This document shows, in pieces, positions 13,023 through 64,000 of a stretch of 64,000 bases of DNA. The translations under genes and the position numbers were made by a program. The DNA lies in NCBI GenBank assembly GCA_027451505.1, contig DAIDJD010000092.1, positions 17,588-81,587 on the forward strand, read 5' to 3'. The notes beneath the pieces are model-generated. The model had not been told where the DNA came from. It saw only the letters and a list, made by a program, of their open reading frames with translations, and made no database searches. Position 1 is the stretch's first letter. Every line of letters begins with the position of its first letter. This stretch comes from a candidate division FCPU426 bacterium (GTDB lineage: Bacteria > Oederibacteriota > JAJYGY01 > DAIDJD01).

Positions 13023-13780
13023 CCACGAACCTTTACCCCATCTACCGGCGCGAGACCCGCGCCCTTTTCCTTTCCCCGGTGGCGTGGATCGTGCTGTTCG
13101 CGTTCTACTCCTTGGCCGGTTTTTTCTGGGTGGCCCCGCTGTCGCAGTACGCCTTCTATTCCGTCATGATGGCGGAACGCGGCCAGGTGATGAAGCTGGT
13201 GGACTACCTGATCGCCCCGTTCCTGGGGAACGTCACGGTCACCTTCATCTTCCTCCTGCCCCTGGTGAGCATGCGCCAGTTCAGCGAGGAGAAGAAGTCG
13301 GGGACCATTGAAACCCTCTTCACCTATCCCTTCAGCGACCTCGACATCGTCCTGGGCAAGTGGTTGGCGGCCGTCACGCTCCTGGGCGTGATGCTCCTGC
13401 CGCTGCTGATGGATTTCGGCTTGATCGCGGACAAGGTGGCCGTTCCCTGGCCCGTGGTGGCCACGGGGATGGCGGGGGTCTTCATGGTGGGCGCCTGCTA
13501 CTTGGCCGTGGGCCTGTTCACTTCGGCCCTGACGGAGAACCAGGTGGTCGCGGCGGCCCTGAGTTTCGGGGCCCTGCTGCTGCTGTTCGTGCTCAACTGG
13601 CTGGCCGCCTCGGCCAGCGGGTCGTTGCACGACCTCATCGGGCAGCTGTCGATCACCACCCACATGCAGGACCTCACCAAGGGGTTGCTCGCGCTCAAGG
13701 ACGTCACCTACTTCATCCTTTTCACCGCGTTCATGCTCTTCTGCACCCTGAGGGTGCTCGAGAGCAAGAAGTGGAGGTAA
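13019..13780 (+). CDS. ABC-2 type transporter permease
   Basis: about 250 aa, six predicted hydrophobic helices; ATGA overlap with the ATPase gene. Confidence 0.65.
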   Translation: MTTNLYPIYRRETRALFLSPVAWIVLFAFYSLAGFFWVAPLSQYAFYSVMMAERGQVMKLVDYLIAPFLGNVTVTFIFLLPLVSMRQFSEEKKSGTIETLFTYPFSDLDIVLGKWLAAVTLLGVMLLPLLMDFGLIADKVAVPWPVVATGMAGVFMVGACYLAVGLFTSALTENQVVAAALSFGALLLLFVLNWLAASASGSLHDLIGQLSITTHMQDLTKGLLALKDVTYFILFTAFMLFCTLRVLESKKWR

Positions 13781-13782
13781 GC

Positions 13783-22459: not shown

Positions 22460-22580
22460 TCCGCCCAACCCTCCAGGCCCCGGAAGGGGCCCCTCCCGGT
22501 CCGCGGACGGCCCCCGTGGCGGCCCGGCCCCGCATTTGCTACCATGACGCCCTCGAACCCCGCATGGAGGCGCCCGGCGC

Positions 22581-24530
22581 ATGGAATTGAGGACCATCAG
22601 CCCCGAGATCGACGGCGGCAAGTACGCCGCCAAATGCGAAACCGACCGCGACTTCGTGGTCGAGGCCGAGGCTCCGGGCGCGGCCGAGGCCGTGCTCAAG
22701 ACCCGCCGTCAAGGCGACGCCGCCTGGGACAGCGTCCCCATGGGATCCCTCGCGTCCGCCGGATGCGAGGGCCGCTTCCGGGGGGCCGTGCGCCTGGCCC
22801 GCGCGGGGACCTACGTCTACACGGTCGAAGCCCGCTCCGCCGGCCCCCGGCCCGAGACCGTCACCTATCCCGAACGCCGGGTGGTGGTGGAGCCGCCCCA
22901 CGCCCGCGTGGGGGCCTGGTACGAGCTTTTCCCCCGCTCCCAGGGGCGGGTCCCGGGGGTCAGCGGCACCTTCAAGGACTGCGAGGACCGGCTTCCGGCC
23001 ATCCAGGCCATGGGCTTCGACGTCCTCTACTTGGCCCCCATCCACCCCATCGGGCGCACCAACCGCAAGGGGCCCAACAACACCCTTTGGGCGGGCCCGG
23101 GCGACCCGGGTTGCGTGTGGTCCATCGGCGACGCCTCGGGCGGGCACACCGCCATCCATCCCGACCTGGGCACGCTGGACGATTTCCGGCGCTTTTGCGC
23201 CAAGGCCCGCGGGCTCGGAATCCGCGTCGCCCTGGATGTGGCCCTGACCTGCTCCTACGACCATCCTTGGCTCAAGGAGCATCCGGACTGGTTCTTCCAC
23301 AACCCCGACGGCAGCATCAAATACGCCGAGAACCCCCCCAAAAAGTATGAGGACACGGTCTTCCTCAATTTCTACCCGCCGGACCGCGAGCGTATGTGGG
23401 AGGAACTCAAAGGCATCTTCACCTTCTGGATCTCCCAGGGGGTGGACATCTTCCGCATCGACAACCCCCACACCAAGCCCGACGACTTCTGGGCCTGGTG
23501 CATCCCCGCCGTGAAGGCCGCGCACCCCGAGGCCGTCTTCCTCTCCGAGGCGTTCACCTACTATGAACGCCTCGAACTCCTGGCCAAGATCGGGTTTTCG
23601 CAGTCCTACACCTATTTCACCTGGCGCACGCGGCGCGACGAGATCCTGGAGTACATGGCCCGCCTGACCGGGACCTACGTGAAGGATTTCCTCAGGCCGA
23701 ATTTTTTCGCCAACACCCCGGACATCCTTCCGAAGAACCTCCAGGAGGGCGGGCGGCCGGCCTTCCTGCAGCGTCTGGCGCTGGCGGCGACGCTCTCCCC
23801 GACCTACGGGATCTATTCCGGGTTCGAACTGTGCGAAAACCGGGCCCTGCCCGGGGGCGAATCCTACGCCGACTCCGAGAAGTACGTGTGCAAGGTGTGG
23901 GACTGGGACCGCGCCGGGAACATCAAGGATTTCATCGCCTGCGTCAACCGCGCGCGCCGGGACAACGAGGCCTTGCGGCACCTCGACAACCTGGTCTTTA
24001 CCAGTTCGACCGACGAGCACGTGCTGGCCTTCACCAAGGTCAGCCCGGATCGGTCCAACGCCGTGCTGGTGGCGGTCAACCTCGATCCCTACGCCAAACG
24101 CGACACCCGGGTCACCGTGCCCCTGGAACGCCTGGGTCTGGGGCACCGCTACCGGGCCGTCGAGCAGATCACCGGCAGGGCCTACGCGTGGCTGGGCCGG
24201 GAGATCAACCTGCAGCTGCCCCGGGAGGAACCCGTGCAGATCTACCGCCTGGAGCCTCCGGCCTCGGCGGCGGCTCCGGCCCGGACCGAGCCTTCGCCCT
24301 TGGCGGAGGCCCATTTTTCGCGCTTCGCCGAGCTCCGGCGCCGGGCCGCGCGCGAAAGCGACCTGTTGGCGCGGCGCGAGATGAAGCAGTTGTTCCACGA
24401 CGAGATGCTGCACCGGGTCTACTACGGCCCCTCCTACGACGCGGCGTACCACGGGGCGCTGGACGCCCTCGCGCGCGCGCAGGGATTCGATTCGATCCTG
24501 GAGATGTCGGTGGGCACGCCGGGCCATTGA
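22581..24530 (+). CDS. glgE: alpha-1,4-glucan:maltose-1-phosphate maltosyltransferase (GH13_3)
   Basis: N-terminal ...IDGGKYAAK..., GH13 catalytic regions (FRIDNPHTKP, LSEAFT), length 649 aa typical of GlgE. Confidence 0.8.
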   Translation: MELRTISPEIDGGKYAAKCETDRDFVVEAEAPGAAEAVLKTRRQGDAAWDSVPMGSLASAGCEGRFRGAVRLARAGTYVYTVEARSAGPRPETVTYPERRVVVEPPHARVGAWYELFPRSQGRVPGVSGTFKDCEDRLPAIQAMGFDVLYLAPIHPIGRTNRKGPNNTLWAGPGDPGCVWSIGDASGGHTAIHPDLGTLDDFRRFCAKARGLGIRVALDVALTCSYDHPWLKEHPDWFFHNPDGSIKYAENPPKKYEDTVFLNFYPPDRERMWEELKGIFTFWISQGVDIFRIDNPHTKPDDFWAWCIPAVKAAHPEAVFLSEAFTYYERLELLAKIGFSQSYTYFTWRTRRDEILEYMARLTGTYVKDFLRPNFFANTPDILPKNLQEGGRPAFLQRLALAATLSPTYGIYSGFELCENRALPGGESYADSEKYVCKVWDWDRAGNIKDFIACVNRARRDNEALRHLDNLVFTSSTDEHVLAFTKVSPDRSNAVLVAVNLDPYAKRDTRVTVPLERLGLGHRYRAVEQITGRAYAWLGREINLQLPREEPVQIYRLEPPASAAAPARTEPSPLAEAHFSRFAELRRRAARESDLLARREMKQLFHDEMLHRVYYGPSYDAAYHGALDALARAQGFDSILEMSVGTPGH

Positions 24531-38282: not shown

Positions 38283-39383
<1,101 letters not shown>

Positions 39384-39448
39384 GGGCCTCCCCCCGCCGC
39401 GGGGAGGGCGCCCCCAGACCCGTCCGACGGGACGCCCTCCCTCCCCGC

Positions 39449-41881
39449 ATGGCCCTTTCCCTGCCTCGCATCCCCTTTCCCGCGTTCGTGCGGGGCCTTC
39501 TGGCCGCCGCGTTCCTGGCGTTGGCCTCGGGCGCCGCCGGCGCCCCCGCGCCCCTCCCTTCGGCCGCGCCGGCTCCCGTCTCCCCCACCGCCCTTGTCCC
39601 GGTCGGCACCGGTGCCCCCACCCCCTTGAGCCCTTCCGCCGGCGGCCTCACCGGCACGGCCGGCGCCCGGGGCGTCTCCGGAACCGCGAAGCCCAAGGGC
39701 GCGCGCCGCGGCCCGCGCGGCCCGGGCTTCGCCCGGTCCTTCGACCAGACCAAACCCATCTCCATCCAGGGCCACCGCGTCCGGTTCGACCAGCAGGATG
39801 AGACGCTGCTGGCCGAAGGCGACGTGGTGCTCGTCAGCGGCGACACCCAGGTCCACGCCCAGCGCCTTTGGTACGACGTGAAGCAGGGCCTGTTGAGGGC
39901 CGAGGGCAACGTGGTGGTGGCCGACTCCTCGGGCGACACGCTGTGGGCCAAGCGCTTGGCCATGAACCAGGTCAGCCGCACGGGCCAGGCGCGCGGCATC
40001 CTCTACACCCAGTCCCCATGGGTGGCGACCTGCGGCGGCGCGGACATGCTTCCCGGGAACGTGGTCGTGCTCCACGGGTGCGAATGCACGAGTTGCCGCC
40101 AGGAGGTCCCGATGTGGCGCATCTGGGCCAAGAAGATGCGCTTCAAGGCCGGGGATTCGATCACGGCCTGGGGGGTGTGGCTCTACACCGGCCGGGTTCC
40201 GGTTTTCTACATCCCCTATTTTTCCCGCAGCATCAAGGACCCCCGGCCGCCCATCGAGATCAAACCCGGATATTCCTCCGTCCTGGGCAACTACGAGGAC
40301 CTGGGCTACAACTACTACCTGGGCAACGGGCAATACGGGACCGTGCGCTACGACCAGATGTCCAACTACGGCAGCGGGTTCGGGTGGGGCCAGCACTACA
40401 AGGTCCCGGGCGGATCCGGCACCGTGGCGGGGTACTTCAACAACCAGAAGAACGACCCGTCCGTGGACAACTACAGCGCGAATTGGACCCACAAGCAGGA
40501 CCTGGGCCACGGCCTCACCCTGCAGGGCAATCTCCAGCTCCTGAGCAACCCGGACTTCAACGAGATCTTCGACATGAGCCAGGTCGACAGCTTCTCGCAG
40601 ACCAGCTACGTGGAGCTGTCCTCCCACCAGAAGACCTATTCCTGGGACCTGCAGGCCGGGTACACGAACTCCATCCAGTCCCTCCCGGTGGTGGGCAGCG
40701 CCCAGATGGTGACCCAGTCCGTGGTGACCCAGGAGACCCTCCCCAGTTTCACCTACTCCCACGACTCCACCGCGTTTTTCCCGGACAGCCTATGGGCGCC
40801 CGCGCGGCTCCTGTACTGGGGCGTCCAGGCGAGCGCCCAGCGCCAATTGGTCGTCCCCCAGGTGCTCGACAACCTTTCGGGGACCGCCACGGAGGCCTTC
40901 GACCCGAACTTGGACTACTACATGGATGGGGTCACGATCTCGCCCACCATCAGCGACACCTTCCCCATCCGCCACGACCTTTCCCTGAACACCGTCGAGA
41001 CGCTGAACATGGGTTGGGTCGAGAACGAGGCGGTGCGCTCCCAGGGGGCCGCCCCGCAGGGGACCCTGAGCCTGGTCATCCCCCCGGCCGAACCCGGCGT
41101 GGGGTCCGCGCTGGCGGGCTTCGGCACGGCGGAGGACCTGCAATGGCGGGCCCGGCGGGGTCTGACGACGGACCTCACCTACCAATACCAGCGCCAGCTC
41201 GACCCCCAGGTGGGCATCCTCTGGTCCGGGGAGGCGGTCAACCTGCTGGCGCTCAAGCTCCAGGAGGAGCCGGTCCGGCACTTGAGCCTGCTGGCCACCG
41301 GGAGCTACGACCTGAGGCCCTACAGCGTGCCCCGGCAGCTCGAACGCCTCTCCCTCATCAACCTCCAGTCCTCCTGGACCCCGCCCGACGGGCGTTCGGG
41401 CTCCCTGAGCGGGTCCTACAGCGTGCCCAACGCCGCCTTCAAGACGGTGGACGCCTCCTACAACGCCTCCGACCCGGGACGGCGCTGGCAGACCAACCTG
41501 AGCGCGGACTGGGTCAACAACGCCATCATCCAGATCCAGCCGCCGCAGGACTTCACCGCCCCGCCCGAACTGGGGCCCTACATCCCCCGCGTGATGCCCG
41601 ACCAGCTTTTCGTCGGGATCCGCAACTCCCTGGCCTTGGGCCCGAAGTGGAAGGTCAGCTACTACGACCAGTTCGATCTGGTGAACCGGCGCCTGAACCA
41701 GCAGGCCTACACCGTGGACCGGGATTTCGATTGCATCGACCTCCAGATCTACGCCCGTCAGGACCTCTTCATGGGGTGGCAATACGGCTTTTCGGTGAGC
41801 CTTTCCGCGGCCCCCAGCGTGAAGTTCGACACGAACCAGCTCAACTCGGACCTGTTCAACCCGGCCCAATACGGGTACTGA
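39449..41881 (+). CDS. lptD: LptD/OstA-like outer-membrane LPS-assembly protein
   Basis: signal peptide, OstA-like N-terminal domain, VPVFYIPYF motif characteristic of the LptD barrel, 810 aa. Confidence 0.6.
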   Translation: MALSLPRIPFPAFVRGLLAAAFLALASGAAGAPAPLPSAAPAPVSPTALVPVGTGAPTPLSPSAGGLTGTAGARGVSGTAKPKGARRGPRGPGFARSFDQTKPISIQGHRVRFDQQDETLLAEGDVVLVSGDTQVHAQRLWYDVKQGLLRAEGNVVVADSSGDTLWAKRLAMNQVSRTGQARGILYTQSPWVATCGGADMLPGNVVVLHGCECTSCRQEVPMWRIWAKKMRFKAGDSITAWGVWLYTGRVPVFYIPYFSRSIKDPRPPIEIKPGYSSVLGNYEDLGYNYYLGNGQYGTVRYDQMSNYGSGFGWGQHYKVPGGSGTVAGYFNNQKNDPSVDNYSANWTHKQDLGHGLTLQGNLQLLSNPDFNEIFDMSQVDSFSQTSYVELSSHQKTYSWDLQAGYTNSIQSLPVVGSAQMVTQSVVTQETLPSFTYSHDSTAFFPDSLWAPARLLYWGVQASAQRQLVVPQVLDNLSGTATEAFDPNLDYYMDGVTISPTISDTFPIRHDLSLNTVETLNMGWVENEAVRSQGAAPQGTLSLVIPPAEPGVGSALAGFGTAEDLQWRARRGLTTDLTYQYQRQLDPQVGILWSGEAVNLLALKLQEEPVRHLSLLATGSYDLRPYSVPRQLERLSLINLQSSWTPPDGRSGSLSGSYSVPNAAFKTVDASYNASDPGRRWQTNLSADWVNNAIIQIQPPQDFTAPPELGPYIPRVMPDQLFVGIRNSLALGPKWKVSYYDQFDLVNRRLNQQAYTVDRDFDCIDLQIYARQDLFMGWQYGFSVSLSAAPSVKFDTNQLNSDLFNPAQYGY

Positions 41882-55362: not shown

Positions 55363-55410
55363 ATGGCCCGTTCCCGTCAAAAGCGCAAGACCGTCAACAA
55401 GAAGAAGTAG
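55363..55410 (+). CDS. candidate 15-aa highly basic small ORF (MARSRQKRKTVNKKK)
   Basis: strong RBS AGGAG 6 nt upstream; stop codon 2 nt before the ATG of the next gene; no homology claim. Confidence 0.15.
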   Translation: MARSRQKRKTVNKKK

Positions 55411-55412
55411 CC

Positions 55413-56093
55413 ATGAACCCCGGCCCGAACCCTACCAACCCTCGGCCCGGCTCGGCGCCGGTCCTTGTTCTCGCCCTGGCGGCCGCGGCGTTGGGCTTGG
55501 CCGCCTGCGGCACCGGCGTTCGCCAGAGCCCGGCCGCCTCCGAGGACACCGGCACCGTGCGCGCCGTCCAGGCCGCGAACTCCACGTACACCACCCGCTC
55601 CGGGGACACGCCTGTGTCGGTGGCCGCGCGTCCCGACGTGTATTCCGACCCGGAACTGTGGCCCCTGCTCAAGGAGGCCAACGCCGAGGTGCTCAAGGGC
55701 ATCTCCCCCTATGGTCCCATCCCGGCGGACACGGTCCTGGTGATCCCCCGCGGGGTGTCCCAGGAGCGCCTGGAGGCCGCCCGCGCCGAGGCCCGCAGGG
55801 TCGCCTTCGAACGCAAGCGCAAGGGGGAAGTCCGGCGGCCCACGGCTGAAGCCGCCCCGCTTTCACCGACGGTGTCCGCGGCCCAGGCGTCCCCGGTCGC
55901 GTCCGCGGCGTCCCCATCCGCAGCGCACGCGGCGGCATCCACCACGGGAGCCGCCTCCCCGGCCTCACCGACGACGAAGGCCAAGGCCGCTGGACGCGGC
56001 CTGCCCCTCACCCTGCTCATCGTGTTGGTGTTGGCCGCCCTCGCGGCGGTGCTGGTGGTGTTCTTCAGGCGGGATCGCAAGGACTTCGACTGA
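55413..56093 (+). CDS. LysM-domain lipoprotein with C-terminal membrane anchor
   Basis: lipobox LAAC; LysM segment YTTRSGDTPVSVA...VLVIP; Ala/Ser/Pro-rich linker; C-terminal hydrophobic helix. Confidence 0.6.
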   Translation: MNPGPNPTNPRPGSAPVLVLALAAAALGLAACGTGVRQSPAASEDTGTVRAVQAANSTYTTRSGDTPVSVAARPDVYSDPELWPLLKEANAEVLKGISPYGPIPADTVLVIPRGVSQERLEAARAEARRVAFERKRKGEVRRPTAEAAPLSPTVSAAQASPVASAASPSAAHAAASTTGAASPASPTTKAKAAGRGLPLTLLIVLVLAALAAVLVVFFRRDRKDFD

Positions 56094-56123: not shown

Positions 56124-57656
56124 ATGTCCTCGCTCTCGCCTAATCTTCAACTCCGGCAGCAGCAGCGGTTGGTGATGACGCCGCAGCTCAAGCAGGCGTT
56201 GAAGATCCTCCAGCTCAACACCGGCGAGCTGGGCGACCTCATCGAGAACGAACTGGCCGAAAACCCGATGCTGGAGGAGATCGGATCCGAGGCCGAAGCG
56301 GCCGAGGCGGGGCCGTCCTCGGAATCCGAATCCGGATCGGCGGGCGAGGCCGACGAGGCGTCCCGGGCGGCTTCGCCCGAATCCGAGGCCGCCCCCGAGG
56401 GGCCGGTGGAGGCCCCGGTCGAGGCCACCCGGGAACTGGAATTGGAGGGGCCCGGGGCCGAACTCGACGACTGGGCCCAGTACCTCGATGACGACGGCAC
56501 CGACTACAGTTTGGCCCGTTCCGAGCGCGAGGACGGCGAAGAAAAGCCCGGATTCGAGAGCTTCCTTTCCCGGGCCGAGACCCTCCAGGAACACCTGTTG
56601 CGGCAGCTCGAGTCCGAGGAACTCCCCCCCGAGCAGCGGAGACTGTGCGAGGAGATCATCGGTCGGGTCGACGAGCGGGGCTACCTTGACGAGGGCCTCG
56701 AGGGGATAGGGCGCGACTGCGGCGCCGGGGCGCCCGAGCTGTTCCATGCCTTGCGCCGTGTCCAGTCCCTGGACCCTCCGGGGGTCGCCGCCCGGGACCT
56801 GCGCGAGTGCCTCCTGCTCCAACTTGAGGCTCTGGGTGCCAAGGGCGGGGCCGCGTGGGACGCGTTGGAAAGCCATTACGACGATGTGGTGCACCGGCGC
56901 TGGGACCGCGTCGCCAAGGCGTTGCGGCTCGATCCCGGGGAGGCGGCCCGGGCCGAGGCCCTGGTCGCTTCCCTGGAGCCCATACCCGGCCGGCCCTACG
57001 GGGGGGCCCCCAACGCGGGGGTGCGGGTGGACGCGGTGGTGGAGAAGGATCCGCTCACCGGCTCCTACCGGGTGGTCATCGCCGATGGCGGCCTGCCCCG
57101 CCTCGGCTTCAACGCCTACTACCGCCGCCTGATCAAATCCGGCGGGGCCTCGTTGGCCGATCCCGAGACCCGGGCCTGGCTCAAGGACCGCCAGCAGTCC
57201 GCGTTGTGGCTCATGCGCGGCATCCAGCAGCGCCACCGCACGCTGCGTCGGGTTTTGGAGGAAATCGTCCAGGAACAGAAGGGCTTCCTGGACAGCGGCC
57301 CGGCGGCGTTCCGTCCGCTGACGCTCAAGGACATCGCCGGCCGCACGGGCCTGCACGAAAGCACCATCTCCAGGGTTTGCACCGGGAAGTACGTGCAGAC
57401 GCCCCGCGGGGTCTTCGAACTCAAGTTTTTTTTCGCCTCCTCCCTGCGCACGGACGACGGCGAGACCAGCTCCCGCGCGGTCAAGGACCGGCTGCGGGAG
57501 CTCATCGGCGAGGAGGACGAGGGCCAGGCGGTGCGGTCGGACCTGGAATTGGCCGGGATCCTGAGCCAAGAGGGTGTGCGCATCGCCCGGCGCACGGTGG
57601 CCAAATATCGCGAGGAGTTGCGCATCCCCCCGGCCCATTTGCGTCGCAAAAGCTGA
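56124..57656 (+). CDS. rpoN: RNA polymerase sigma-54 factor
   Basis: region I LQLRQQQRLVMTPQLKQALKILQL; C-terminal RpoN box ARRTVAKYRE. Confidence 0.95.
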   Translation: MSSLSPNLQLRQQQRLVMTPQLKQALKILQLNTGELGDLIENELAENPMLEEIGSEAEAAEAGPSSESESGSAGEADEASRAASPESEAAPEGPVEAPVEATRELELEGPGAELDDWAQYLDDDGTDYSLARSEREDGEEKPGFESFLSRAETLQEHLLRQLESEELPPEQRRLCEEIIGRVDERGYLDEGLEGIGRDCGAGAPELFHALRRVQSLDPPGVAARDLRECLLLQLEALGAKGGAAWDALESHYDDVVHRRWDRVAKALRLDPGEAARAEALVASLEPIPGRPYGGAPNAGVRVDAVVEKDPLTGSYRVVIADGGLPRLGFNAYYRRLIKSGGASLADPETRAWLKDRQQSALWLMRGIQQRHRTLRRVLEEIVQEQKGFLDSGPAAFRPLTLKDIAGRTGLHESTISRVCTGKYVQTPRGVFELKFFFASSLRTDDGETSSRAVKDRLRELIGEEDEGQAVRSDLELAGILSQEGVRIARRTVAKYREELRIPPAHLRRKS

Positions 57657-57688
57657 GCCCTTCGCTCGCCCGCGCCGGCGGCACCCAA

Positions 57689-57770
57689 TTGACAGTGCCC
57701 GGGTTCCCGTGGTAGTTTCGCTTAGGGAAAAATCAATAAAATCAAGGCTTTTCATAAAAGTCGGGAACCC
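57689..57770 (+). promoter_or_regulatory. candidate internal promoter (TTGACA-N18-TAGTTT) flanked by 9-bp inverted repeat GGGTTCCCG...CGGGAACCC around an AT-rich tract upstream of hpf
   Basis: TTGACA at 57689-57694; IR arms at 57701-57709 and 57762-57770. Confidence 0.25.
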
Positions 57771-57783
57771 ACGGGGAGGCGCC

Positions 57784-58323
57784 ATGCAGATCCAGATCGC
57801 CGGGCAGCACGTCGAGGTGACGCCCGGTTTGCGCCAGTTCATCGCGGCCAAATTTGAGCGGCTCGGGGACATGCATCCCAGCGCGCGCAAGGCGGCCGTG
57901 GTGCTATCGGTGGAGAAGTACCGGCACACCGCCGAAATCCACCTCCACGTCGACGGCGTGGAATTGAGCGCCAAAAAGACCACCAAGGACATGTACGCCA
58001 GCCTGGAACAGGCCTTGGAGGCGATCGAGCAGCAGGCCGACAAGCGCAAGGACCGGCTGCGCACCAGCGGCAGCCTGCGGCGGGGCAAAGCCAAGGTCGA
58101 GCGCCTGCGGGCCCGGGGCGGGGCGGCCGACGCGGAGACGGCGCCTCCCCCCAAAGTGGCGCGCCTGCGGCCCTCGACGCCCCGTTCCCTGACCCTGGAG
58201 GAGGCCGTGGAGGCCCTGGAGGCTTCGGGCAACGGGTTCGTGCTGTTCAAGGAGCCCGGACGTTCCGGGACCCGCCTGCTCGTCCGGCGCCCGGACGCGA
58301 GCTACGCGCTCACCGAGGTCTGA
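57784..58323 (+). CDS. hpf: ribosome hibernation promoting factor (long form)
   Basis: MQIQIAGQHVEVTPGLRQFI...; C-terminal dimerisation extension; canonical position after rpoN. Confidence 0.9.
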   Translation: MQIQIAGQHVEVTPGLRQFIAAKFERLGDMHPSARKAAVVLSVEKYRHTAEIHLHVDGVELSAKKTTKDMYASLEQALEAIEQQADKRKDRLRTSGSLRRGKAKVERLRARGGAADAETAPPPKVARLRPSTPRSLTLEEAVEALEASGNGFVLFKEPGRSGTRLLVRRPDASYALTEV

Positions 58324-58333
58324 GGAGGCGGGA

Positions 58334-58798
58334 ATGCGTATCTCGGAATTCCTGGTCCCGGAGGCGGTGCTGGTCGACCTTAAGGCGACCAACAAGCGGG
58401 ACGTGCTCATCGAACTGCTCCAGCCCCTTGCCAAGGCCGGCCGCATCGCCGACGCCAAAAAAATGGTGGAGGTGCTCCTTGAGCGCGAGGAGCTGGGTTC
58501 CACGGGGATCGGCGGACGCATCGCCATCCCCCACGGCAAGGCGGCCCAGGTCCGGGAACTCTCGGCCGGCCTGGGCGTCTCCCGCGCCGGGATCCCGTTC
58601 GACGCGCTGGATGGGGAACCGGTGAACCTCTTCATCGCCCTGGTGGCCCCGGAGGGGTCGGCGGGCCTGCACCTTAAGGCCCTGGCCCGCGTCTCCAGCC
58701 TGCTCAAGGATCGGGCCTTCAAGAAGGCCTTGATGGGCGCCCAGACCCGCGAGGACGTTTTGCGCCTCATCGAGGCCGAAGAGAAGGACAAGGGCTAG
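58334..58798 (+). CDS. ptsN: PTS EIIA-Ntr (fructose/mannitol-type IIA)
   Basis: phosphorylatable His context RIAIPHGK; 154 aa; canonical position after hpf. Confidence 0.85.
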   Translation: MRISEFLVPEAVLVDLKATNKRDVLIELLQPLAKAGRIADAKKMVEVLLEREELGSTGIGGRIAIPHGKAAQVRELSAGLGVSRAGIPFDALDGEPVNLFIALVAPEGSAGLHLKALARVSSLLKDRAFKKALMGAQTREDVLRLIEAEEKDKG

Positions 58799-58802
58799 CC
58801 GC

Positions 58803-60071
58803 GTGCGCCTGCGCGTTCCCAGCGGCCCGGGCATCAAACGCTGGCTTTCGCTGCTGGTCCTGAGCATCCTGGTCCTGGCCTTCGCCCTCAGCGGCATGAT
58901 GGGCAGGATCTTCGCCGGATGGCGGGTGAACGTCGTCTCCCCGGTCACGCTGCGGCGGTGGACGCGCCAGGTCCAGAGCCTGCGTTTCGTGGACTACGCC
59001 CTCGCCATGACGGCGGTGTGGGGCATCACCCTGGCCCTGCGGCGCCTCTATTTCAACGTGCTGGCCTTCGCCGCGCGTGAACCCCAGGCGGCGAGCGCCC
59101 CGGCCCTCAGGGCCCGCCGGGCCCGGGGCCCGCGGGTGGTGGCCATCGGCGGCGGAACCGGGCTGCCCAACCTGCTCAGCGGACTGAAGGCCTACACGGA
59201 CCGGCTCACCGCCGTGGTGACGGTGGCCGATGACGGCGGCTCCTCGGGGCGCCTGCGCCGCGACCTGCGCATCCTCCCCCCGGGGGACCTGCGCAATTGC
59301 CTGGTGGCGCTGGCCGAGACCGAGCCGCTCATGGCGAGGCTCTTCCAGCACCGCTTCACGCGCCAGGGGGCCCTGGCCGGGCACAGCTTCGGCAACCTGT
59401 TCATCGCCGCGCTCACCGAGGTCACGGGCGATTTCGGCGAGGCGGTCCGGGCCAGCAGCAAGGTCCTGGCGGTCAGCGGGCAGGTGCTGCCGGTCACGTT
59501 GGAGGATGTGCGCCTCGTGGCCACTTTGGCGGACGGACGCGTCATCTCCGGCGAGAGCCGCATCACCTCGGCCGGCGGCGTCATCCGCAGGCTGGTGCTG
59601 GAGCCCGCCGGGGCGAGGCCGAACGTGGAGGTGCTCCAGGCGATCGCCCGAGCCGACGCCATCGTCCTTGGGCCGGGCAGCCTCTACACCAGCATCCTGC
59701 CCAACCTGCTGCTCGAACCTGTGGCGCGGGCGGTCGAACGCAGCGGCGCCCTGAAGATCTACGCCTGCAACGTCATGACCCAGCCCGGCGAAACGGACGG
59801 CCTGCCCGTCTCGGGGCACCTCAAGGCGCTGAAGGAGCATACGCGTTTGGCGCTGGTCGACACGGTGTTGGCCAACACCGAGCAACCCAGCGATGAAATC
59901 CTGGAGCGCTACGCCCGCCAGGGCCAGCACCCGGTCGCGGTGGACCGCGACGCCATCGAGGCGCTGGGGGTCCGCCTGGTCAAGGCCCGCCTGCTGGAGG
60001 CCCGGGACGGCCTCATCCGGCACCATCCCGGACGCCTGGCCCGCGCCGTCATCCGCTTGATCGTCCTATGA
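58803..60071 (+). CDS. YvcK/CofD-family (UPF0052, gluconeogenesis factor-like) protein with an extra N-terminal transmembrane segment
   Basis: VVAIGGGTGLPNLLSGLK...VVTVADDGGSSGRLR...LFQHRF...GHSFGNLF is near-colinear with B. subtilis YvcK; about 60-aa hydrophobic N-terminal extension. Confidence 0.75.
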   Translation: MRLRVPSGPGIKRWLSLLVLSILVLAFALSGMMGRIFAGWRVNVVSPVTLRRWTRQVQSLRFVDYALAMTAVWGITLALRRLYFNVLAFAAREPQAASAPALRARRARGPRVVAIGGGTGLPNLLSGLKAYTDRLTAVVTVADDGGSSGRLRRDLRILPPGDLRNCLVALAETEPLMARLFQHRFTRQGALAGHSFGNLFIAALTEVTGDFGEAVRASSKVLAVSGQVLPVTLEDVRLVATLADGRVISGESRITSAGGVIRRLVLEPAGARPNVEVLQAIARADAIVLGPGSLYTSILPNLLLEPVARAVERSGALKIYACNVMTQPGETDGLPVSGHLKALKEHTRLALVDTVLANTEQPSDEILERYARQGQHPVAVDRDAIEALGVRLVKARLLEARDGLIRHHPGRLARAVIRLIVL

Positions 60072-60481
60072 TCCCGGTATTGGTCCTGACCCACGGTGAA
60101 CTCGCGGCGGCGCTCCTCGGGGCGGCGGAATCCATCCTTGGGCGTCAGGACCGCGCCGCGGCCCTGGGCCTGGAGGCCTCGGAGAGCAGGGAAGCCTTCG
60201 CCGGACGGGTCCGCGCCGCGGCGGACCAACTGGGCGCGCCCGCGCTGGTCCTGGTCGACCTCGCGGGAGGCACACCCTGGAACGCGGCCTTGCTCTGCGG
60301 CCTGGCGTCCGATCCCGGCGAAATCCTGGCGGGCGTGAATCTCCCCGTGCTTTTGGAGGCGCTCGGCCGGAGGGACGGGCCCGGGGCCTCGCCCAGGACC
60401 CTGGCCGCGGACCTGGCGGCCCTGGGGGCCGCGGCCTTCGCCAGGGCGTCCGACCTCATGGCGCGCGGGGCGGCGGCGTGA
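60068..60481 (+). CDS. PTS mannose-family EIIA component
   Basis: MIPVLVLTHGELAA (active His in the THG context); ATGA overlap with the upstream gene. Confidence 0.8.
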   Translation: MIPVLVLTHGELAAALLGAAESILGRQDRAAALGLEASESREAFAGRVRAAADQLGAPALVLVDLAGGTPWNAALLCGLASDPGEILAGVNLPVLLEALGRRDGPGASPRTLAADLAALGAAAFARASDLMARGAAA

Positions 60482-60960
60482 GCGTCCTCCTGGCCCGCGT
60501 CGATGACCGTCTCATCCACGGACAGGTCGTGGTGGGATGGGCGCGGGCACTGGAGGCGGACTGCCTGGTCGTGGCCAACGATGCTGTGGCCGCGGATCCT
60601 CTGCAACGGACGCTCCTGCCCATGGCCGTCCCGCCGCATATCCGCGTGGCCATCCTGCGCCTCACCGAGGCGGCCGAGGCCGTGGCCAAGGGGACCCTGC
60701 CGGGCCAGCGCGTGATCTTGCTGTTCGCGTCGCTCCCGGATGCCGCCCGTTTCATGGCCGCCGGGGGGCCGCTGAAGGAACTCAACATCGGCGGCATACG
60801 CCTGGCCCCCGGCCGCCAAGCCCTGCGCACCGCGGTGGCCCTCGGGCCCGAGGATGTGCGCGCGGCGCGCGACCTAGCCGGTTGCGGGGTTGCCTTGGCC
60901 CTGCGCATGGTGCCGTCCGAACCGGCGGAACCCCTGCTGCCCCTTCTGCCCCCGAATTGA
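60478..60960 (+). CDS. PTS mannose/sorbose-family EIIB component
   Basis: ARVDDRLIHGQVVVGW (EIIB-Man phospho-His motif); GTGA overlap. Confidence 0.85.
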   Translation: MSVLLARVDDRLIHGQVVVGWARALEADCLVVANDAVAADPLQRTLLPMAVPPHIRVAILRLTEAAEAVAKGTLPGQRVILLFASLPDAARFMAAGGPLKELNIGGIRLAPGRQALRTAVALGPEDVRAARDLAGCGVALALRMVPSEPAEPLLPLLPPN

Positions 60961-60991
60961 GCCGGGGGGGCCTGGGCCACACGAGGAACGC

Positions 60992-61786
60992 ATGCTCCCG
61001 TTGGGTACGCTGATCCTCCTGAGCGCCGTGGGCGGACTCCTGGGCCTGGATTCCACGGGTGCCCTCCAGGTGATGCTGTCCCGGCCTTTGGTGGTGGGGG
61101 CCCTCTTCGGCGTGCTCCTGGGGAACCTTTCCCTGGGGCTGGTGCTGGGCAGCATGGTCGAGCTGTTGTGCATCGCGGGTCCGCCCGTGGGCAGCCTGGT
61201 GCCGCCGGACTCCACGGCCGCCGCCGCCGCCGCCGCGACCGTGGCGGTGCGCCTCGCGCACCTCAGGCCCGGGCATTGGACCACGGCCGCGGCCGCCCTG
61301 GGGTTCCTGGCGGCGGTGCCCGCGGGCGCGCTGGGCGCGCGCGCCGAGGTGTGGCAGCGCCGATGGACCAATCGCCTGAGCCGGAGGGCCGACGCGGAGT
61401 TGGACGCCGGCAGGCTGCCCCGCCTGGGGATCCTCCTGGCCGCCGCCCTGGGAATGGCTTTCTTGAGGGGCTTTCTGGTGTGCGCCCTGGTGCTGGGGGT
61501 GGGCGTGCCCGTGTTGGCGGGCATCTTCAAGGGGTTGCCGGTGGAGGGCCTGTACGCGCTGCGCTGGTCGTTCTGGCTGTTCTGGCTCCTGGGCTTGGCA
61601 GTCGCGGCCGACCAGTTCTGGGACCGCCGCGGCCTGCGGACCGCGGCCGGCGTTTCGCTGGGCGTGGCGGTGTTCGGCGCGGCCGTGGGGGCCGGCCAGG
61701 GTGAGGTGTTGGCCGCGGTGATCGGCGCGGCCGGGGTCGCCGGGGTGTGGATCTGGCTGGCCAACCGCAACGAGGGCTGGACGTGA
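60992..61786 (+). CDS. PTS mannose-family EIIC permease component
   Basis: multi-pass membrane protein in the ManY position; RBS GAGGAA. Confidence 0.75.
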   Translation: MLPLGTLILLSAVGGLLGLDSTGALQVMLSRPLVVGALFGVLLGNLSLGLVLGSMVELLCIAGPPVGSLVPPDSTAAAAAAATVAVRLAHLRPGHWTTAAAALGFLAAVPAGALGARAEVWQRRWTNRLSRRADAELDAGRLPRLGILLAAALGMAFLRGFLVCALVLGVGVPVLAGIFKGLPVEGLYALRWSFWLFWLLGLAVAADQFWDRRGLRTAAGVSLGVAVFGAAVGAGQGEVLAAVIGAAGVAGVWIWLANRNEGWT

Positions 61787-62562
61787 AGTCCGGGGCAAGT
61801 TGGCGCATCGAGGCTGCGCTGCGTGCCACGCTCCTGCAGGGCGCCTGGAATTTCGAGCGCATGCAGAACCTCGGGTGGGCCTATTGCATGGAGCCGGCCC
61901 TGCGCGCCCTCTACCCGGATCCGGCCCGCAGGGCCGCCGCCCTGCGGCGCCACCTGGAGCTGTTCAACACCCATCCGTACCTGGCGCCCTACGTCCTGGG
62001 GGCGGCCCTGCGGGCGGAATCCGAGGCCGCGGCGGGCCGCGGCGGCGTCGAGGCCGTCGCGGCCATCAAGGCGGGCCTTTCCCCGGCGTTGGCGGCCGTC
62101 GGCGACTCCTTTTTTTGGGCCAACCTGCGCCCCGCCGCCGGGCTGTTGGGGGTGGTGTGGCTGTGGCTGGCGCCCGGCCGTCTGCGCCTGGCGGCCCCGC
62201 TGGTCTTCCTCGGGGCCTACAACCTGGCCTCCCTCCCCCTGCGTCTGCGCGGCGTGCGCGCGGGCTGGCTCAAGGGGGACGGCGTGGCGGTGCACGTCGC
62301 GCGGCTCGGCCTTCCGGCGAAGGCCGAGGGGCTGCGGCGCATGGCGCTGGTCCTGGTGGCCGGGCTCTGCGGCGCGCTCGCCCGCATCAACCAGCCCGCG
62401 GTGGGGCCTTCACCGGTGGCGGACAATTTCCTGTTCCTCGGGGCCGGGCTGCTGATGCTCCTGCTCCTGCGCCTGAGCGTCCGTCCCGTGGTGCTGCTGG
62501 TGCTGTGCACACTGGCCTCGCTGGTCCTGGCGCTGGCCATCCCCCCCATGAACCCGCATTGA
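61783..62562 (+). CDS. PTS mannose-family EIID permease component
   Basis: WNFERMQNLGW motif typical of ManZ/EIID; GTGA overlap. Confidence 0.8.
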   Translation: MKSGASWRIEAALRATLLQGAWNFERMQNLGWAYCMEPALRALYPDPARRAAALRRHLELFNTHPYLAPYVLGAALRAESEAAAGRGGVEAVAAIKAGLSPALAAVGDSFFWANLRPAAGLLGVVWLWLAPGRLRLAAPLVFLGAYNLASLPLRLRGVRAGWLKGDGVAVHVARLGLPAKAEGLRRMALVLVAGLCGALARINQPAVGPSPVADNFLFLGAGLLMLLLLRLSVRPVVLLVLCTLASLVLALAIPPMNPH

Positions 62563-62573
62563 AAGATCCGACT

Positions 62574-62852
62574 ATGGCCGAGCCCCTCCACCGCGACATC
62601 CCCATCGTCAACAAGCTGGGCCTGCACCTGCGGGCCGCGGCCCAGTTCGTCCAGCTTTGCGGACGCTATCCCTGCGACGTTTGGGTCGCCAAGGACGGGC
62701 GCCGCGTCAACGGGAAGAGCATCATGGGCGTGATGACCCTGGTGGCGGTCAAGGGCAGCACCCTGGGGGTCGATGCGGAGGGGGAGCGCGCCTCCGAGTG
62801 CCTGGATGCCCTGGCCAAACTGGCCGCCGAACGCTTCGGGGAAAAGGAGTGA
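62574..62852 (+). CDS. ptsH: phosphocarrier protein HPr
   Basis: 92 aa; active-site His15 context NKLGLHLRAAA. Confidence 0.85.
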   Translation: MAEPLHRDIPIVNKLGLHLRAAAQFVQLCGRYPCDVWVAKDGRRVNGKSIMGVMTLVAVKGSTLGVDAEGERASECLDALAKLAAERFGEKE

Positions 62853-64000
62853 ACCTTTCGCTCAAAGGCGTTCCCGCCTCGCGCGGGATCGTCATCGGAC
62901 CCGCCCTCGTGCTCTCCGGCGCCGCCGGGGACGATGGCCAGGAGCGGCGCCTGGAGCCGCGCGAGGTCGAACCCGAGATCGAGCGCCTGCTGAAGGCGGT
63001 CGCGACCACGCGCGACCAACTCCTGGACCTGAAGCGGCGGGTGGCCATGGAGATCGGCCAGAAGCACGCCGAGATCTTCAACGCGCACATCCTCTTCCTG
63101 GACGACCCGACCTTCCTCGTCGAGACCCAGGAGCAGGTCCGCAAGCAGCGGACCTGCGCGGAGTGGGCGGTCCGCGGCTACGTCGACCGCTATGCGCGCA
63201 TGCTCGACGCCGTCGGGGACGGCATGATGCGGGAGCGCCAGGGGGACATCCGCGACGTGGGGAAACGCGTCGTGCAGAATCTGCGGGGCGGGTCGCTCGC
63301 GCCGCTGTCGGAATCGGCCGAGCGGCGCATCCTGGTGGCCCGCGACCTGAGCCCGTCGGAGACCGCCCAACTCGACTTGGGCAAGGTCCTGGCTTTCGCC
63401 ACGGACCAGGGGGGCCCCACCTCCCACACCGCCGTGATCGCCCGGACCATGGAGATGCCCGCGGTGGTCGGCCTGGAGCAGGCCACCCTCCACATCAAGG
63501 ACGGGGACACGCTGATCCTGGACGGCGGGGCGGGCGTCGTGGTGGTGTCCCCGGACAAGGAGACGCTCGCCCGCTACCGCCAGCGCCAGGCCGAACTTAA
63601 GGTCAAGGAGCGCGAACTCAAGGCGGTCTCGCGGCTGCCCGCCGTCACCAAGGACGGCCGGGTCATCAAGGTCTTCGGGAACATCGAGCTTCCCGAGGAG
63701 GCCAGGAACGCCGCGGCCAAGGGCGCCGAGGGGGTGGGGCTCTTCCGGACCGAATTCCTCTTCGTGAACCGGAACAACCTGCCCACCGAGGAGGAGCAGT
63801 TCGAGGCCTACCGCCTGGCCCTCCGGCACAGCCATCCCCACCCGGTGACCATCCGGACGCTGGACCTGGGCGGGGACAAGTTCGTCACCCACCTCGGCAT
63901 GTCCGGGGAGATGAACCCCTTCCTGGGGTTGAGGGCCATCCGTCTGTGCCTGGCCCATCCCTACGTCTTCAAGGTCCAACTGCGCGCCATCCTACGGGCC
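62849..64000 (+). CDS. ptsI: phosphoenolpyruvate-protein phosphotransferase (PTS enzyme I), 5' partial; continues beyond the window
   Basis: GTGA overlap with ptsH; phospho-His region GGPTSHTAVIARTMEMPAVVG; no stop before the window end. Confidence 0.9.
   Translation, partial: MNLSLKGVPASRGIVIGPALVLSGAAGDDGQERRLEPREVEPEIERLLKAVATTRDQLLDLKRRVAMEIGQKHAEIFNAHILFLDDPTFLVETQEQVRKQRTCAEWAVRGYVDRYARMLDAVGDGMMRERQGDIRDVGKRVVQNLRGGSLAPLSESAERRILVARDLSPSETAQLDLGKVLAFATDQGGPTSHTAVIARTMEMPAVVGLEQATLHIKDGDTLILDGGAGVVVVSPDKETLARYRQRQAELKVKERELKAVSRLPAVTKDGRVIKVFGNIELPEEARNAAAKGAEGVGLFRTEFLFVNRNNLPTEEEQFEAYRLALRHSHPHPVTIRTLDLGGDKFVTHLGMSGEMNPFLGLRAIRLCLAHPYVFKVQLRAILRA

Follow-up and report, generated by a model that had tools for sequence, protein, structure and literature searches.

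The gene order in the last part of this stretch of DNA raises the question of whether sigma-54, ribosome hibernation, sugar uptake and the general phosphotransferase system (PTS) are under common control in candidate division FCPU426. The stretch analyzed (64,000 nt, hereafter the window) carries ten genes, all on the forward strand, between positions 56124 and 64000. The first-pass annotation read them as a nitrogen-PTS module joined to a complete mannose-family sugar PTS and the general PTS proteins, in a single transcriptional unit. Every gene passes the Pfam gathering thresholds and the NCBIfam names agree; together with alignments of EIIC and EIID to solved structures, this upholds the gene identities and the complete EII set. 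The genes and nearby elements are as follows.

55413..56093, + strand: lipoprotein-like gene with no Pfam domain, 30 nt upstream of rpoN
56124..57656, + strand: rpoN (sigma-54), 510 aa; Sigma54_AID, CBD and DBD; TIGR02395, 387 bits (cutoff 277)
57690..57719, + strand: candidate internal sigma-70-type promoter; TTGACA, 18-nt spacer with terminal TG, TAGTTT
57735..57752, + strand: invariant 18-nt leader element AATAAAATCAAGGCTTTT, upstream of hpf, the same in relatives
57784..58323, + strand: hpf, long form, 179 aa; Ribosomal_S30AE and Ribosom_S30AE_C; TIGR00741, 72 bits (cutoff 41)
58334..58798, + strand: ptsN-like stand-alone EIIA-2 (fructose/mannitol family); PTS_EIIA_2, E 2e-34
58803..60071, + strand: yvcK (YvcK/GlmR, CofD-like), 422 aa; TIGR01826, 379 bits (cutoff 196)
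60068..60481, + strand: mannose-family EIIA; EIIA-man, E 1.4e-15; His in THG motif
60478..60960, + strand: mannose/sorbose-family EIIB; PTSIIB_sorb, E 8e-42; His in DDRLIHGQ motif
60992..61786, + strand: divergent mannose-family EIIC, 264 aa, multi-pass membrane protein; EII-Sor, 65.6 bits (gathering score 26.3)
61783..62562, + strand: mannose-family EIID, 259 aa; EIID-AGA, E 3e-38
62574..62852, + strand: ptsH (HPr), 92 aa; PTS-HPr; TIGR01003, 82 bits (cutoff 48)
62849..64000, + strand: ptsI (Enzyme I [EI]), first 383 aa, 3' end beyond the window; TIGR01417, 354 bits (cutoff 342)

The genes are intact, ptsI as far as the window reaches. Their proposed fusion by overlapping start and stop codons holds for four junctions (yvcK/IIA, IIA/IIB, IIC/IID and ptsH/ptsI, each with a 4-nt overlap), but at the remaining junctions between hpf and ptsI the genes are 4, 10, 11 and 31 nt apart, and 127 nt separate rpoN from hpf.

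Sequence inspection and alignment show that all phosphoryl-transfer residues are present. The PtsN-like EIIA carries its active-site histidine within an IPHGK motif. It falls short of the cutoff set for the NCBIfam PtsN equivalog (93 versus 139 bits), and its assignment as PtsN (EIIA-Ntr) is positional: the protein is 45 to 58% identical across phyla, with hpf as its neighbor in every case. Among the relatives aligned, the EIIA-Man histidine is conserved throughout and the EIIB DDRLIHGQ motif is invariant. EIIC has a multi-pass hydropathy profile and aligns with Escherichia coli ManY (6K1H/7DYR; E 1.6e-6), while EIID aligns with ManZ (6K1H; E 1e-33) and retains the QGxWNFERMQ, RRHLExFNT and GDxxFW motifs; both are divergent, scoring far under the NCBIfam subfamily cutoffs. 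HPr has the equivalents of His15 (in LGLHLRAAA) and Ser46 (in GKSIMG) and reaches only 35 bits on the NPr-specific model (cutoff 119). EI comprises PEP-utilisers_N, the mobile domain and PEP-utilizers_C, with no N-terminal GAF domain, and is 577 to 602 aa long in relatives. The pair is thus of the general type, as first proposed. Finally, Hpf bears a C-terminal dimerization domain (Pfam Ribosom_S30AE_C).

Comparative synteny, the check suggested by the first-pass annotation, was strongly positive. GroEL assigns the window to a high-GC, FCPU426-like lineage. Four close relatives (a JGI relative, L084, L085 and L086) have exactly the same gene order. With one additional gene, hprK, after ptsN and before yvcK, the order recurs in candidate division FCPU426, in Goldbacteria and in further lineages, and its conservation extends over several uncultured phyla. 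Omnitrophota and Planctomycetales have a reduced core, ptsN-(hprK)-yvcK-ptsH-ptsI. Since the order is shared by independent contigs of relatives whose YvcK identity ranges from 81% down to 45%, the arrangement is not due to chance.

Does this conserved order amount to one transcript? A single transcript running from rpoN, or from further upstream, to ptsI would impose strict coexpression of sigma-54, ribosome hibernation, PtsN, YvcK, sugar uptake and the general PTS. The genes do share one strand, terminator-like sites do not rise above chance anywhere in the 55- to 64-kb region, including the position after rpoN, and in E. coli and its relatives transcription of ptsN and npr is described as starting at a promoter upstream of rpoN (PMC13104625). 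Nevertheless, the rpoN-hpf spacer holds a promoter-like element, TTGACAG-17/18-TGnTAnnnT, whose -35 and extended -10 are kept in L084, L085 and L086. Downstream of it, AATAAAATCAAGGCTTTT is identical in the window and these three loci and occurs as a single copy in the window, where 0 matches are expected. The spacer retains a length of 120 to 127 nt in all four close relatives, and its remainder, unlike these two elements, has diverged. The -10 is weak (TAGTTT/TACCCT/TAGCCT), which is why a generic promoter scan did not call the candidate. The leader element has no Rfam match; base pairing between its 3' end and the Shine-Dalgarno sequence of hpf is possible, albeit weak and with no covariation. 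More distant loci (L001, L006 and L007) have textbook sigma-70 promoters at the same junction. Moreover, unrelated genes (a toxin-antitoxin pair, a GNAT gene and a deaminase gene) are inserted between rpoN and hpf in a relative with 64% identity, which shows that the link to rpoN can be dispensed with, whereas the genes from hpf to ptsI keep together.

Because of the conserved promoter-like element and invariant leader in the 127-nt spacer, hpf to ptsI most likely form a separate putative operon from which rpoN is separable, and the proposal of one transcriptional unit that includes rpoN is not supported in that form; we regard the single transcript as unlikely. Separate transcription is not universal, since the L002 spacer is only 33 nt long and lacks a promoter. 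The coupling of ptsN to the sugar-PTS genes stands, as neither a promoter nor a terminator was found between them. Upstream, rpoN probably shares a transcript with the lipoprotein-like gene. A homolog of this gene also precedes rpoN in L085 and L086, the JGI relative has a 229-aa Pfam-less gene in the equivalent position, and neither lptA nor lptB lies upstream of rpoN at this locus.

A somewhat less likely alternative is that the modules are adjacent by descent and functionally independent: EII-Man, EI and HPr would serve ordinary catabolic sugar uptake, PtsN would be served by EI-Ntr and NPr encoded elsewhere, and yvcK would be a mere neighbor. Many bacteria do have EI and HPr paralogs (PMC2405797), our view of the genome spans about 64 kb, and relatives carry carbohydrate genes within or beside the cluster, namely GH57 between IIB and IIC and, further down, PGI/PMI-type isomerase and NTP-transferase genes, a sign of genuine hexose metabolism. 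On the other side, the ptsN-(hprK)-yvcK-ptsH-ptsI core holds together even without EII genes in 13 loci, which argues that PtsN, YvcK, HPr and EI are a conserved partnership; the junctions overlap or span at most 31 nt; and EI and HPr paralogs are absent from the window and from the 10 kb on either side of the locus in any relative. The 64-kb window contains no copy of rapZ, hprK or npr and no further PTS gene. Copies of ptsP, npr, rapZ or hprK elsewhere, if present, would weaken both a single shared phosphorelay and the replacement of rapZ by yvcK.

Least probable of all is that EII-Man is mainly a sensor or regulatory device (a transceptor that, at the membrane, modulates the phosphorylation of HPr and PtsN and the activity of YvcK) or acts on envelope amino sugars rather than importing nutrients, as might be suggested by the strong divergence of EIIC and EIID from characterized transporters, the absence of EII from related lineages, an EIID-ptsH-ptsI trio with no adjacent EIIC in a Deltaproteobacteria MAG, the predicted membrane anchor of YvcK, the putative Man-PTS of Desulfovibrio vulgaris, with an EI^R considered chiefly regulatory (PMC2405797), and the proposed involvement of E. 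coli ManXYZ in the movement of glucosamine intermediates (PMC3162934), but all four EII components are intact and keep the catalytic histidines and hallmark ManZ motifs that a working transporter needs.

Residues 111 to 417 of YvcK align over their whole length with the solved YvcK structure 2HZB (E 5e-93). They are preceded by an extension of about 110 aa with two hydrophobic helices, kept in homologs, for which the AlphaFold model proposes helices at 11 to 36 and 47 to 90 before a confident CofD domain. This predicted membrane anchor is lacking in the YvcK proteins of Firmicutes, from which function would be carried over by analogy. GlmR activates GlmS, and its interaction with YvcJ/RapZ depends on UDP-GlcNAc (PMC7525490, PMC6171935); GlmS is regulated by RapZ/YhbJ (PMC3162934, PMC13104625). 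The replacement of RapZ and NPr by a YvcK-family gene is borne out locally, with rapZ and npr absent and yvcK in the rapZ slot. Elsewhere, in 36 non-PTS loci, the gene directly preceding yvcK is rapZ, which is missing from every PTS-linked locus.

The echo of both proteobacterial and Bacillus arrangements is real. With the proteobacterial operon (lptB-rpoN-hpf-ptsN-rapZ/yhbJ-npr/ptsO), the window shares the order rpoN, hpf, ptsN, followed by a GlcN6P/UDP-GlcNAc-linked regulator and then an HPr-family gene, and a PtsN that is a stand-alone EIIA-2 without cognate EIIB or EIIC. It differs in having yvcK for rapZ, no lpt or kds genes upstream, a general HPr with Ser46, a GAF-less EI within the cluster (ptsP lies elsewhere in Proteobacteria), a complete EIIABCD-Man set and the candidate promoter before hpf. 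The Firmicute yvcJ(rapZ)-yvcK(glmR)-yvcL(whiA)-crh cluster likewise has a YvcK/GlmR ortholog with an HPr-family gene downstream, and several Firmicute yvcK loci have rpoN a few kilobases downstream; the window, in contrast, lacks yvcJ and whiA, has true HPr and EI instead of Crh, and PtsN (or HprK) rather than YvcJ upstream. The IIA/IIB/IIC/IID architecture, IIA and IIB phosphohistidines and ManZ signatures are those of E. coli ManXYZ, whereas here IIA and IIB are two distinct proteins, the IIC and IID sequences are highly divergent, and the set sits in a regulatory cluster, not a sugar-catabolic operon. In the alpha-proteobacterial hprK-manX(EIIA-Man)-ptsO module, e.g., of Brucella and Rhizobium (PMC2937029, PMC13104625), HPr feeds PtsN and EIIA-Man, as proposed here, and HprK is linked to these genes as in the sister lineages of the window; that module uses EI-Ntr, lacks EIIB, EIIC and EIID and lies away from rpoN, whereas the window has a permease and all genes are contiguous.

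The novelty initially attributed to the locus was overstated. An ancestral rpoN cluster with ptsN, hprK, IIA-Man, HPr and EI was already proposed in Proteobacteria (Comas 2008; Francke 2011; PMC2405797; PMC3162934), with IIB, IIC and IID explicitly suggested as part of it (PMC2405797); Xanthomonadales have rpoN...ptsN-ptsK with IIA-Man-ptsH-ptsI, and D. vulgaris has its putative Man-PTS (PMC2405797). The set of rpoN, ptsN, (ptsK), IIA-Man, HPr and a "regulatory"-type EI is the same here. What is new is a fuller cluster, contiguous and intact outside Proteobacteria (FCPU426, Goldbacteria and others), with yvcK, absent from that model, in the rapZ slot, and with no linked hprK in the window clade.

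We therefore favor, as probable, a vertically conserved "rpoN-PTS supercluster" in this uncultured high-GC FCPU426 lineage, with hpf to ptsI as its own operon, a shared phosphorelay and YvcK in the RapZ slot. Transcription of rpoN would proceed together with the upstream lipoprotein gene, and the tightly packed operon from hpf through ptsN, yvcK, the four EII genes and ptsH to ptsI, perhaps with the next genes, would be driven by the sigma-70-type promoter, with read-through from rpoN also possible. In sister lineages, HprK would add control of HPr at Ser46; in the window clade, hprK may have been lost or relocated, with Ser46 kept. YvcK/GlmR, anchored in the membrane, would probably serve the same theme as proteobacterial RapZ, controlling the supply of the cell envelope precursors GlcN6P/UDP-GlcNAc. 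One general EI-to-HPr chain would feed two branches: EIIA-Man, EIIB-Man and EIIC/EIID for the uptake and phosphorylation of a hexose or amino sugar, and the stand-alone PtsN-like EIIA as a regulatory output. Since both branches would draw on the same chain, the extent to which PtsN is phosphorylated would reflect the flux through the sugar branch.

Family scans, a listing of ORFs and inspection of their start codons show that the ten genes that the first-pass annotation had placed in order from rpoN to ptsI are co-directional. Over the EII membrane genes, a crude caller based on GC3 wrongly picked frames on the antisense strand; the + strand Pfam matches were used in its stead. The cluster region, with a G+C content of about 72%, comprises the following genes.

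Genes of the cluster: window coordinates, strand, product, and distance from the preceding gene (negative for overlaps)
56124-57656, +, rpoN, all three sigma-54 domains (TIGR02395, 387 bits); 30 nt after the lipoprotein-like gene
57784-58323, +, hpf, long form with the C-terminal domain present; 127 nt, the sole sizeable gap
58334-58798, +, stand-alone EIIA-2 (ptsN), phospho-site IPHGK; 10 nt
58803-60071, +, yvcK (YvcK/CofD-related); 4 nt
60068-60481, +, EIIA-Man, phospho-site THG; −4 nt
60478-60960, +, EIIB of the sorbose type, phospho-site DDRLIHGQ; −4 nt
60992-61786, +, EIIC; 31 nt
61783-62562, +, EIID; −4 nt
62574-62852, +, HPr (ptsH), phospho-sites LGLH (His15) and GKSIMG (Ser46); 11 nt
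from 62849, +, Enzyme I (ptsI), phospho-site TSH, 383 residues and then the window end; −4 nt

The fusion of these genes through overlapping start and stop codons, as had been proposed, is seen at four of the nine within-cluster junctions and is absent from the other five. The succession of rpoN, hpf and the stand-alone EIIA-2 gene on one strand is kept in relatives. Upstream of rpoN lie a Pfam-less lipoprotein-like ORF, a divergently transcribed TPR-PBP gene, ligT, cinA, pyrE and pyrF; lptA/lptB, sought directly upstream of rpoN, were not found among these genes, and no hprK was found elsewhere within the 64-kb window. The stretch that separates the lipoprotein-like gene from the divergent TPR-PBP gene holds a micro-ORF (55363-55410, +); it consists of 15 codons, is very basic (MARSRQKRKTVNKKK, followed by a stop) and has an AGGAG ribosome-binding site. 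It is nearly nucleotide-identical in two close relatives (L085 and L086), in which the flanking intergenic DNA has diverged, and could encode a small ribosome-associated protein or a leader peptide.

Our alignment of the cluster proteins shows that no phospho-acceptor residue is missing and that all are kept in relatives, including the equivalents of the phosphorylatable His10 of IIA and His175 of IIB. The mannose-family PTS (TC 4.A.6) is complete, with IIA, IIB, IIC and IID each above gathering scores (PF03610, PF03830, PF03609 and PF03613, respectively); IID is unique to this family. EIID matches E. coli ManZ (6K1H) with an E value of 1e-33 and retains the signature motifs, and EIIC is distantly but significantly related to ManY (E 1.6e-6). 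Since both score far below the NCBIfam subfamily cutoffs, they represent a divergent branch of the mannose family. EI has no N-terminal GAF domain (PEP-utilisers_N begins at residue 6), unlike the PtsP of the PTS-Ntr, and it matches the general PtsI model (TIGR01417, 354 bits) better than PRK11061/PtsP (225 bits versus a cutoff of 583). Similarly, the sole HPr-family gene in the window scores 82 bits with the general HPr model (cutoff, 48) versus 35 bits with the NPr model (cutoff, 119). The stand-alone PtsN-like EIIA-2 is common to the window and the PTS-Ntr. It matches PF00359, conserves its phospho-site, is linked to rpoN and hpf, and has no cognate EIIB/C-Fru; as its score of 93 bits falls under the TIGR01419 equivalog cutoff of 139, its assignment to PtsN rests on context.

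YvcK carries the full-length CofD-like domain common to the YvcK/GlmR family and belongs to the YvcK subfamily (TIGR01826, 379 bits versus a cutoff of 196; the F420 CofD model gives just 25 bits). Residues 111 to 417 match the solved Bacillus YvcK structure (2HZB) from one end to the other (E 5e-93). GlmR/YvcK proteins bind UDP-GlcNAc, activate GlmS and interact with YvcJ/RapZ, UDP-sugar binding and GlmS activation being known for the Firmicute proteins only (PMC7525490, PMC6171935). In contrast to the family's known gene context, the yvcK locus of the window shows no association with yvcJ/rapZ or whiA. Residues 1 to 110 (58803-59135) form a conserved extension, including KRW and SLRFxD motifs, with one strongly and one moderately hydrophobic helix; the structural model (mean pLDDT, 84.5) has helices at residues 11-36 and 47-90, followed by a CofD domain that is modelled with confidence. 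We found no discussion of an N-terminal extension for characterised Firmicute GlmR proteins. The pattern YPGxRLKRW, helix, QSLRFxD, helix, RLKRG is widespread, occurring in Negativicutes, Gastranaerophilales, Omnitrophota, some Cyanobacteria and Vulcanimicrobiota (loci L010, L011, L014, L017, L024, L072 and others), with or without adjacent PTS genes.

Homologs of YvcK span all 422 residues down to about 50% identity; in the genome-contig search, the best match among the matches listed was 50% identical, and the window's own clade was not among them. Neighbourhood look-ups and tblastn of the ten proteins, HprK, RapZ and WhiA onto the fetched loci gave four classes. Class A, the full cluster, occurs without hprK in the window, in a JGI contig with 81% YvcK identity and in L085 and L086, with partial versions in L083, L084 and L087; the JGI contig has a gene order identical to that of the window and shares its upstream genes. 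A version of class A in which hprK lies between ptsN and yvcK is found in L001, L002 (FCPU426), L005 (FCPU426), L003 and L007 (Goldbacteria), L006 and a second JGI contig (64% YvcK identity). The order is thus deeply conserved, in class A loci of FCPU426, Goldbacteria and others. Class B is a reduced core, ptsN-(hprK)-yvcK-ptsH-ptsI without EII genes (13 loci, including Omnitrophota and Planctomycetales). Class C is rapZ-yvcK(-whiA) with no adjoining PTS genes, in 36 loci from Firmicutes, Armatimonadota, Vulcanimicrobiota, Calditrichales, Ignavibacteriales and others, and class D is yvcK alone, as in Cyanobacteria and Gastranaerophilales.

With the RapZ of a fetched locus (L063) as the query, tblastn located rapZ at 36 yvcK loci, none of them PTS-linked, and gave no match in the window. 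Within ±10 kb, rapZ is missing from every class A and class B locus, and in no class C locus does ptsN, ptsH or ptsI adjoin yvcK. The rapZ and PTS neighbourhoods of yvcK are mutually exclusive across classes A to C, which lends locus-level support to the earlier proposal that yvcK stands in the place of rapZ. hprK was not found in the window or in L084 to L086, and it lies between ptsN and yvcK in deeper relatives; in the window clade (the window, L084 to L086 and the JGI contig with 81% identity), it is lost or moved, with Ser46 of HPr kept.

Several further features of these loci deserve mention. The HPr active site (62619-62645 in the window) reads HLRAAA in the full-cluster lineages (the window, L001-L007, L085 and L086), versus the canonical HARPAA in reduced-cluster lineages. 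A GH57-family glycoside hydrolase with AmyA/alpha-glucan type domains is encoded between EIIB and EIIC in several relatives (L001, 12285-14453; L006, ~12300-14300; and the JGI contig with 64% identity), and in relatives ptsI is followed by genes for PGI/PMI-type isomerase or NTP-transferase and for WecG. These neighbours hint that the EII substrate is connected with hexoses or alpha-glucans. EIID homologs are restricted to clades. A stand-alone EIID-ptsH-ptsI trio is present in L097 (10001-12806) and L098 (10001-12919), one from a Deltaproteobacteria MAG and one from another lineage, with no adjoining EIIA, EIIB or EIIC and no rpoN. For a transporter subunit, an EIID with no EIIC beside it is unusual, and the trio shows that the EIID-HPr-EI link is itself old. 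In Firmicute/Clostridia MAG loci (L008, L011, L012, L018, L021, L049, L061 and L075), rapZ-yvcK-whiA is followed by rpoN within ~1-6 kb, whiA being undetected in L061; therefore, the yvcK-rpoN neighbourhood recurs in monoderms, in the opposite order.

Elsewhere, the window encodes DnaK and GroESL. Its GroEL shares 89% identity with a protein that bears the label "candidate division FCPU426 bacterium," and the named matches that follow (~72%) come from Verrucomicrobiota, Omnitrophota and Kiritimatiellia. On this single GroEL match, the source is placed within or beside FCPU426, as an uncultured lineage of high G+C content. Also encoded are a T2SSE ATPase, RNase R, a transketolase, a PMT_2 glycosyltransferase, a GlgE-like maltosyltransferase (22548-24530, +) adjoining an AraC-type regulator and an 859-aa ORF with a strong coding signature and no Pfam match (39302-41881, +).

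The single transcript that had been proposed to include rpoN needs correction, given the conserved promoter-like elements before hpf and the separability of rpoN in one relative. The rpoN-hpf spacer contains TTGACA, an 18-nt spacer ending in TG, and TAGTTT, followed by an AT-rich leader that is conspicuous against the GC-rich genome. When the spacers of the window and three close relatives from metagenome contigs (RpoN 65-77% and hpf 52-53% identical) are aligned, the sequence has diverged except in blocks that vary little or not at all: TTGACAG, CGTGnTA(G/C)(T/C)(T/C)T and the 18-mer AATAAAATCAAGGCTTTT. The 18-mer (57735-57752, +) lies in the hpf leader, is present in a single copy in the window versus 0 matches expected and, among 96 fetched loci, is carried outside the window only by the three closest relatives. 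In more distant relatives, canonical promoters occupy this junction: L001 has TTGACA-18-TATAAT, L006 has TTGACT-16-TAGAAT with TG upstream and L007 has an AT-rich spacer with TTGACT...TATTCT; the spacer of L002 is just 33 nt long and has no promoter. In the JGI contig with 64% identity, an insertion of unrelated genes separates rpoN from hpf, and the block from hpf to ptsI is unbroken.

Judging from sequence, hpf through ptsI very probably form an operon with its own sigma-70-type promoter, and rpoN probably belongs with the lipoprotein-like gene in an upstream transcription unit. Read-through from rpoN into hpf may still occur, because no terminator follows rpoN; terminator-like sites were not above chance (4 found versus 4.6 expected). 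In relatives, a DUF748/TamB-like gene follows ptsI, closely where measured (10 nt in the JGI contig with 81% identity), with no convincing terminator between the two; therefore, the transcription unit may extend beyond ptsI. The 160-nt yvcK-IIA gap of L086 contains no recognisable promoter.

Other readings of the leader fare less well. Pairing between the hpf Shine-Dalgarno sequence and the 3' end of the 18-mer is possible, but it is weak (−4.6 kcal/mol) and shows no covariation, which leaves a structured RNA as an idea only; Rfam gave nothing, whether the whole window was searched at gathering thresholds or the hpf leader at permissive ones. TAAAAT within the 18-mer was considered as an alternative −10 element, but the −35 that would go with it is not conserved and does not resemble the consensus. 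Autoregulation by sigma-54 was rejected: the scan for TGGCAC-N5-TTGCW (up to 2 mismatches; 13 matches versus 23.5 expected) gave none upstream of any cluster gene.

In the proposal of Comas et al. (2008), rpoN, ptsK, ptsI (for a "regulatory" EI), ptsO/ptsH and ptsN came together early in the history of Proteobacteria, in a cluster that once also held IIA-Man, possibly with IIB, IIC and IID as in D. vulgaris, later lost (PMC2405797). The window likewise unites rpoN, ptsN, IIA-Man, ptsH and a GAF-less ptsI, but its cluster lacks the hprK (ptsK) of the ancestral one. Francke et al. (2011) described a conserved rpoN context of yhbJ/rapZ, lpt, kds, PTS-Ntr and hpf genes, with the yhbJ association extending to Firmicutes, and tied sigma-54 to envelope precursors (PMC3162934). 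The window resembles the proteobacterial-type rpoN operon in the succession of rpoN, hpf and ptsN, but has neither rapZ/yhbJ nor, upstream, lptA/lptB. In view of Comas et al. and other literature, the composite-cluster idea is therefore not new. A 2026 review of the PTS-Ntr describes such organisations for Proteobacteria only (PMC13104625), and in the searchable literature we found no paper placing yvcK inside an rpoN/PTS cluster. An intact, contiguous cluster outside Proteobacteria, the exchange of rapZ for yvcK, a membrane-anchored YvcK, and the hpf promoter with its leader element all appear to be undescribed there. The cluster is real, conserved and informative for PTS evolution, and it is a variant of an arrangement known and hypothesised before, not a system of a new kind.

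In the reading that we favour, the genes from hpf to ptsI would be expressed as one operon, and a single EI/HPr chain would feed EIIA-Man/EIIB/EIICD as well as PtsN, whose phosphorylation would mirror sugar flux. YvcK, in place of RapZ, would act on GlcN6P/UDP-GlcNAc supply. HprK would control Ser46 of HPr in the sister lineages and, possibly through an unlinked gene, in the window lineage. Beyond gene order, all of this is inference in uncultured organisms; it predicts an hpf-proximal promoter with its leader element, an HPr common to PtsN and EIIA-Man, and a membrane-anchored GlmR. We further speculate, while holding it to be rather improbable, that these candidate phyla preserve an undivided, ancestral-type PTS, in which one EI/HPr pair serves both the PtsN branch and the Man-type EII, and a membrane-anchored YvcK/GlmR, not RapZ, provides the link to GlcN6P/UDP-GlcNAc homeostasis, possibly at EIIC/EIID.

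The 2008 hypothesis of a single cluster of rpoN, PtsN, HprK, mannose-type EII, HPr and EI gains sequence-level support from an intact example outside Proteobacteria. Moreover, the either/or presence of rapZ or PTS genes beside yvcK suggests that control of amino-sugar or envelope-precursor supply is the conserved theme of the slot downstream of rpoN, in keeping with the proposed role of sigma-54 as governor of the bacterial exterior. If the undivided-PTS reading is true, RapZ and YvcK would be alternative occupants of one conserved regulatory slot, and these bacteria would offer a living model of the connection between PTS-Ntr and sugar PTS before their separation.
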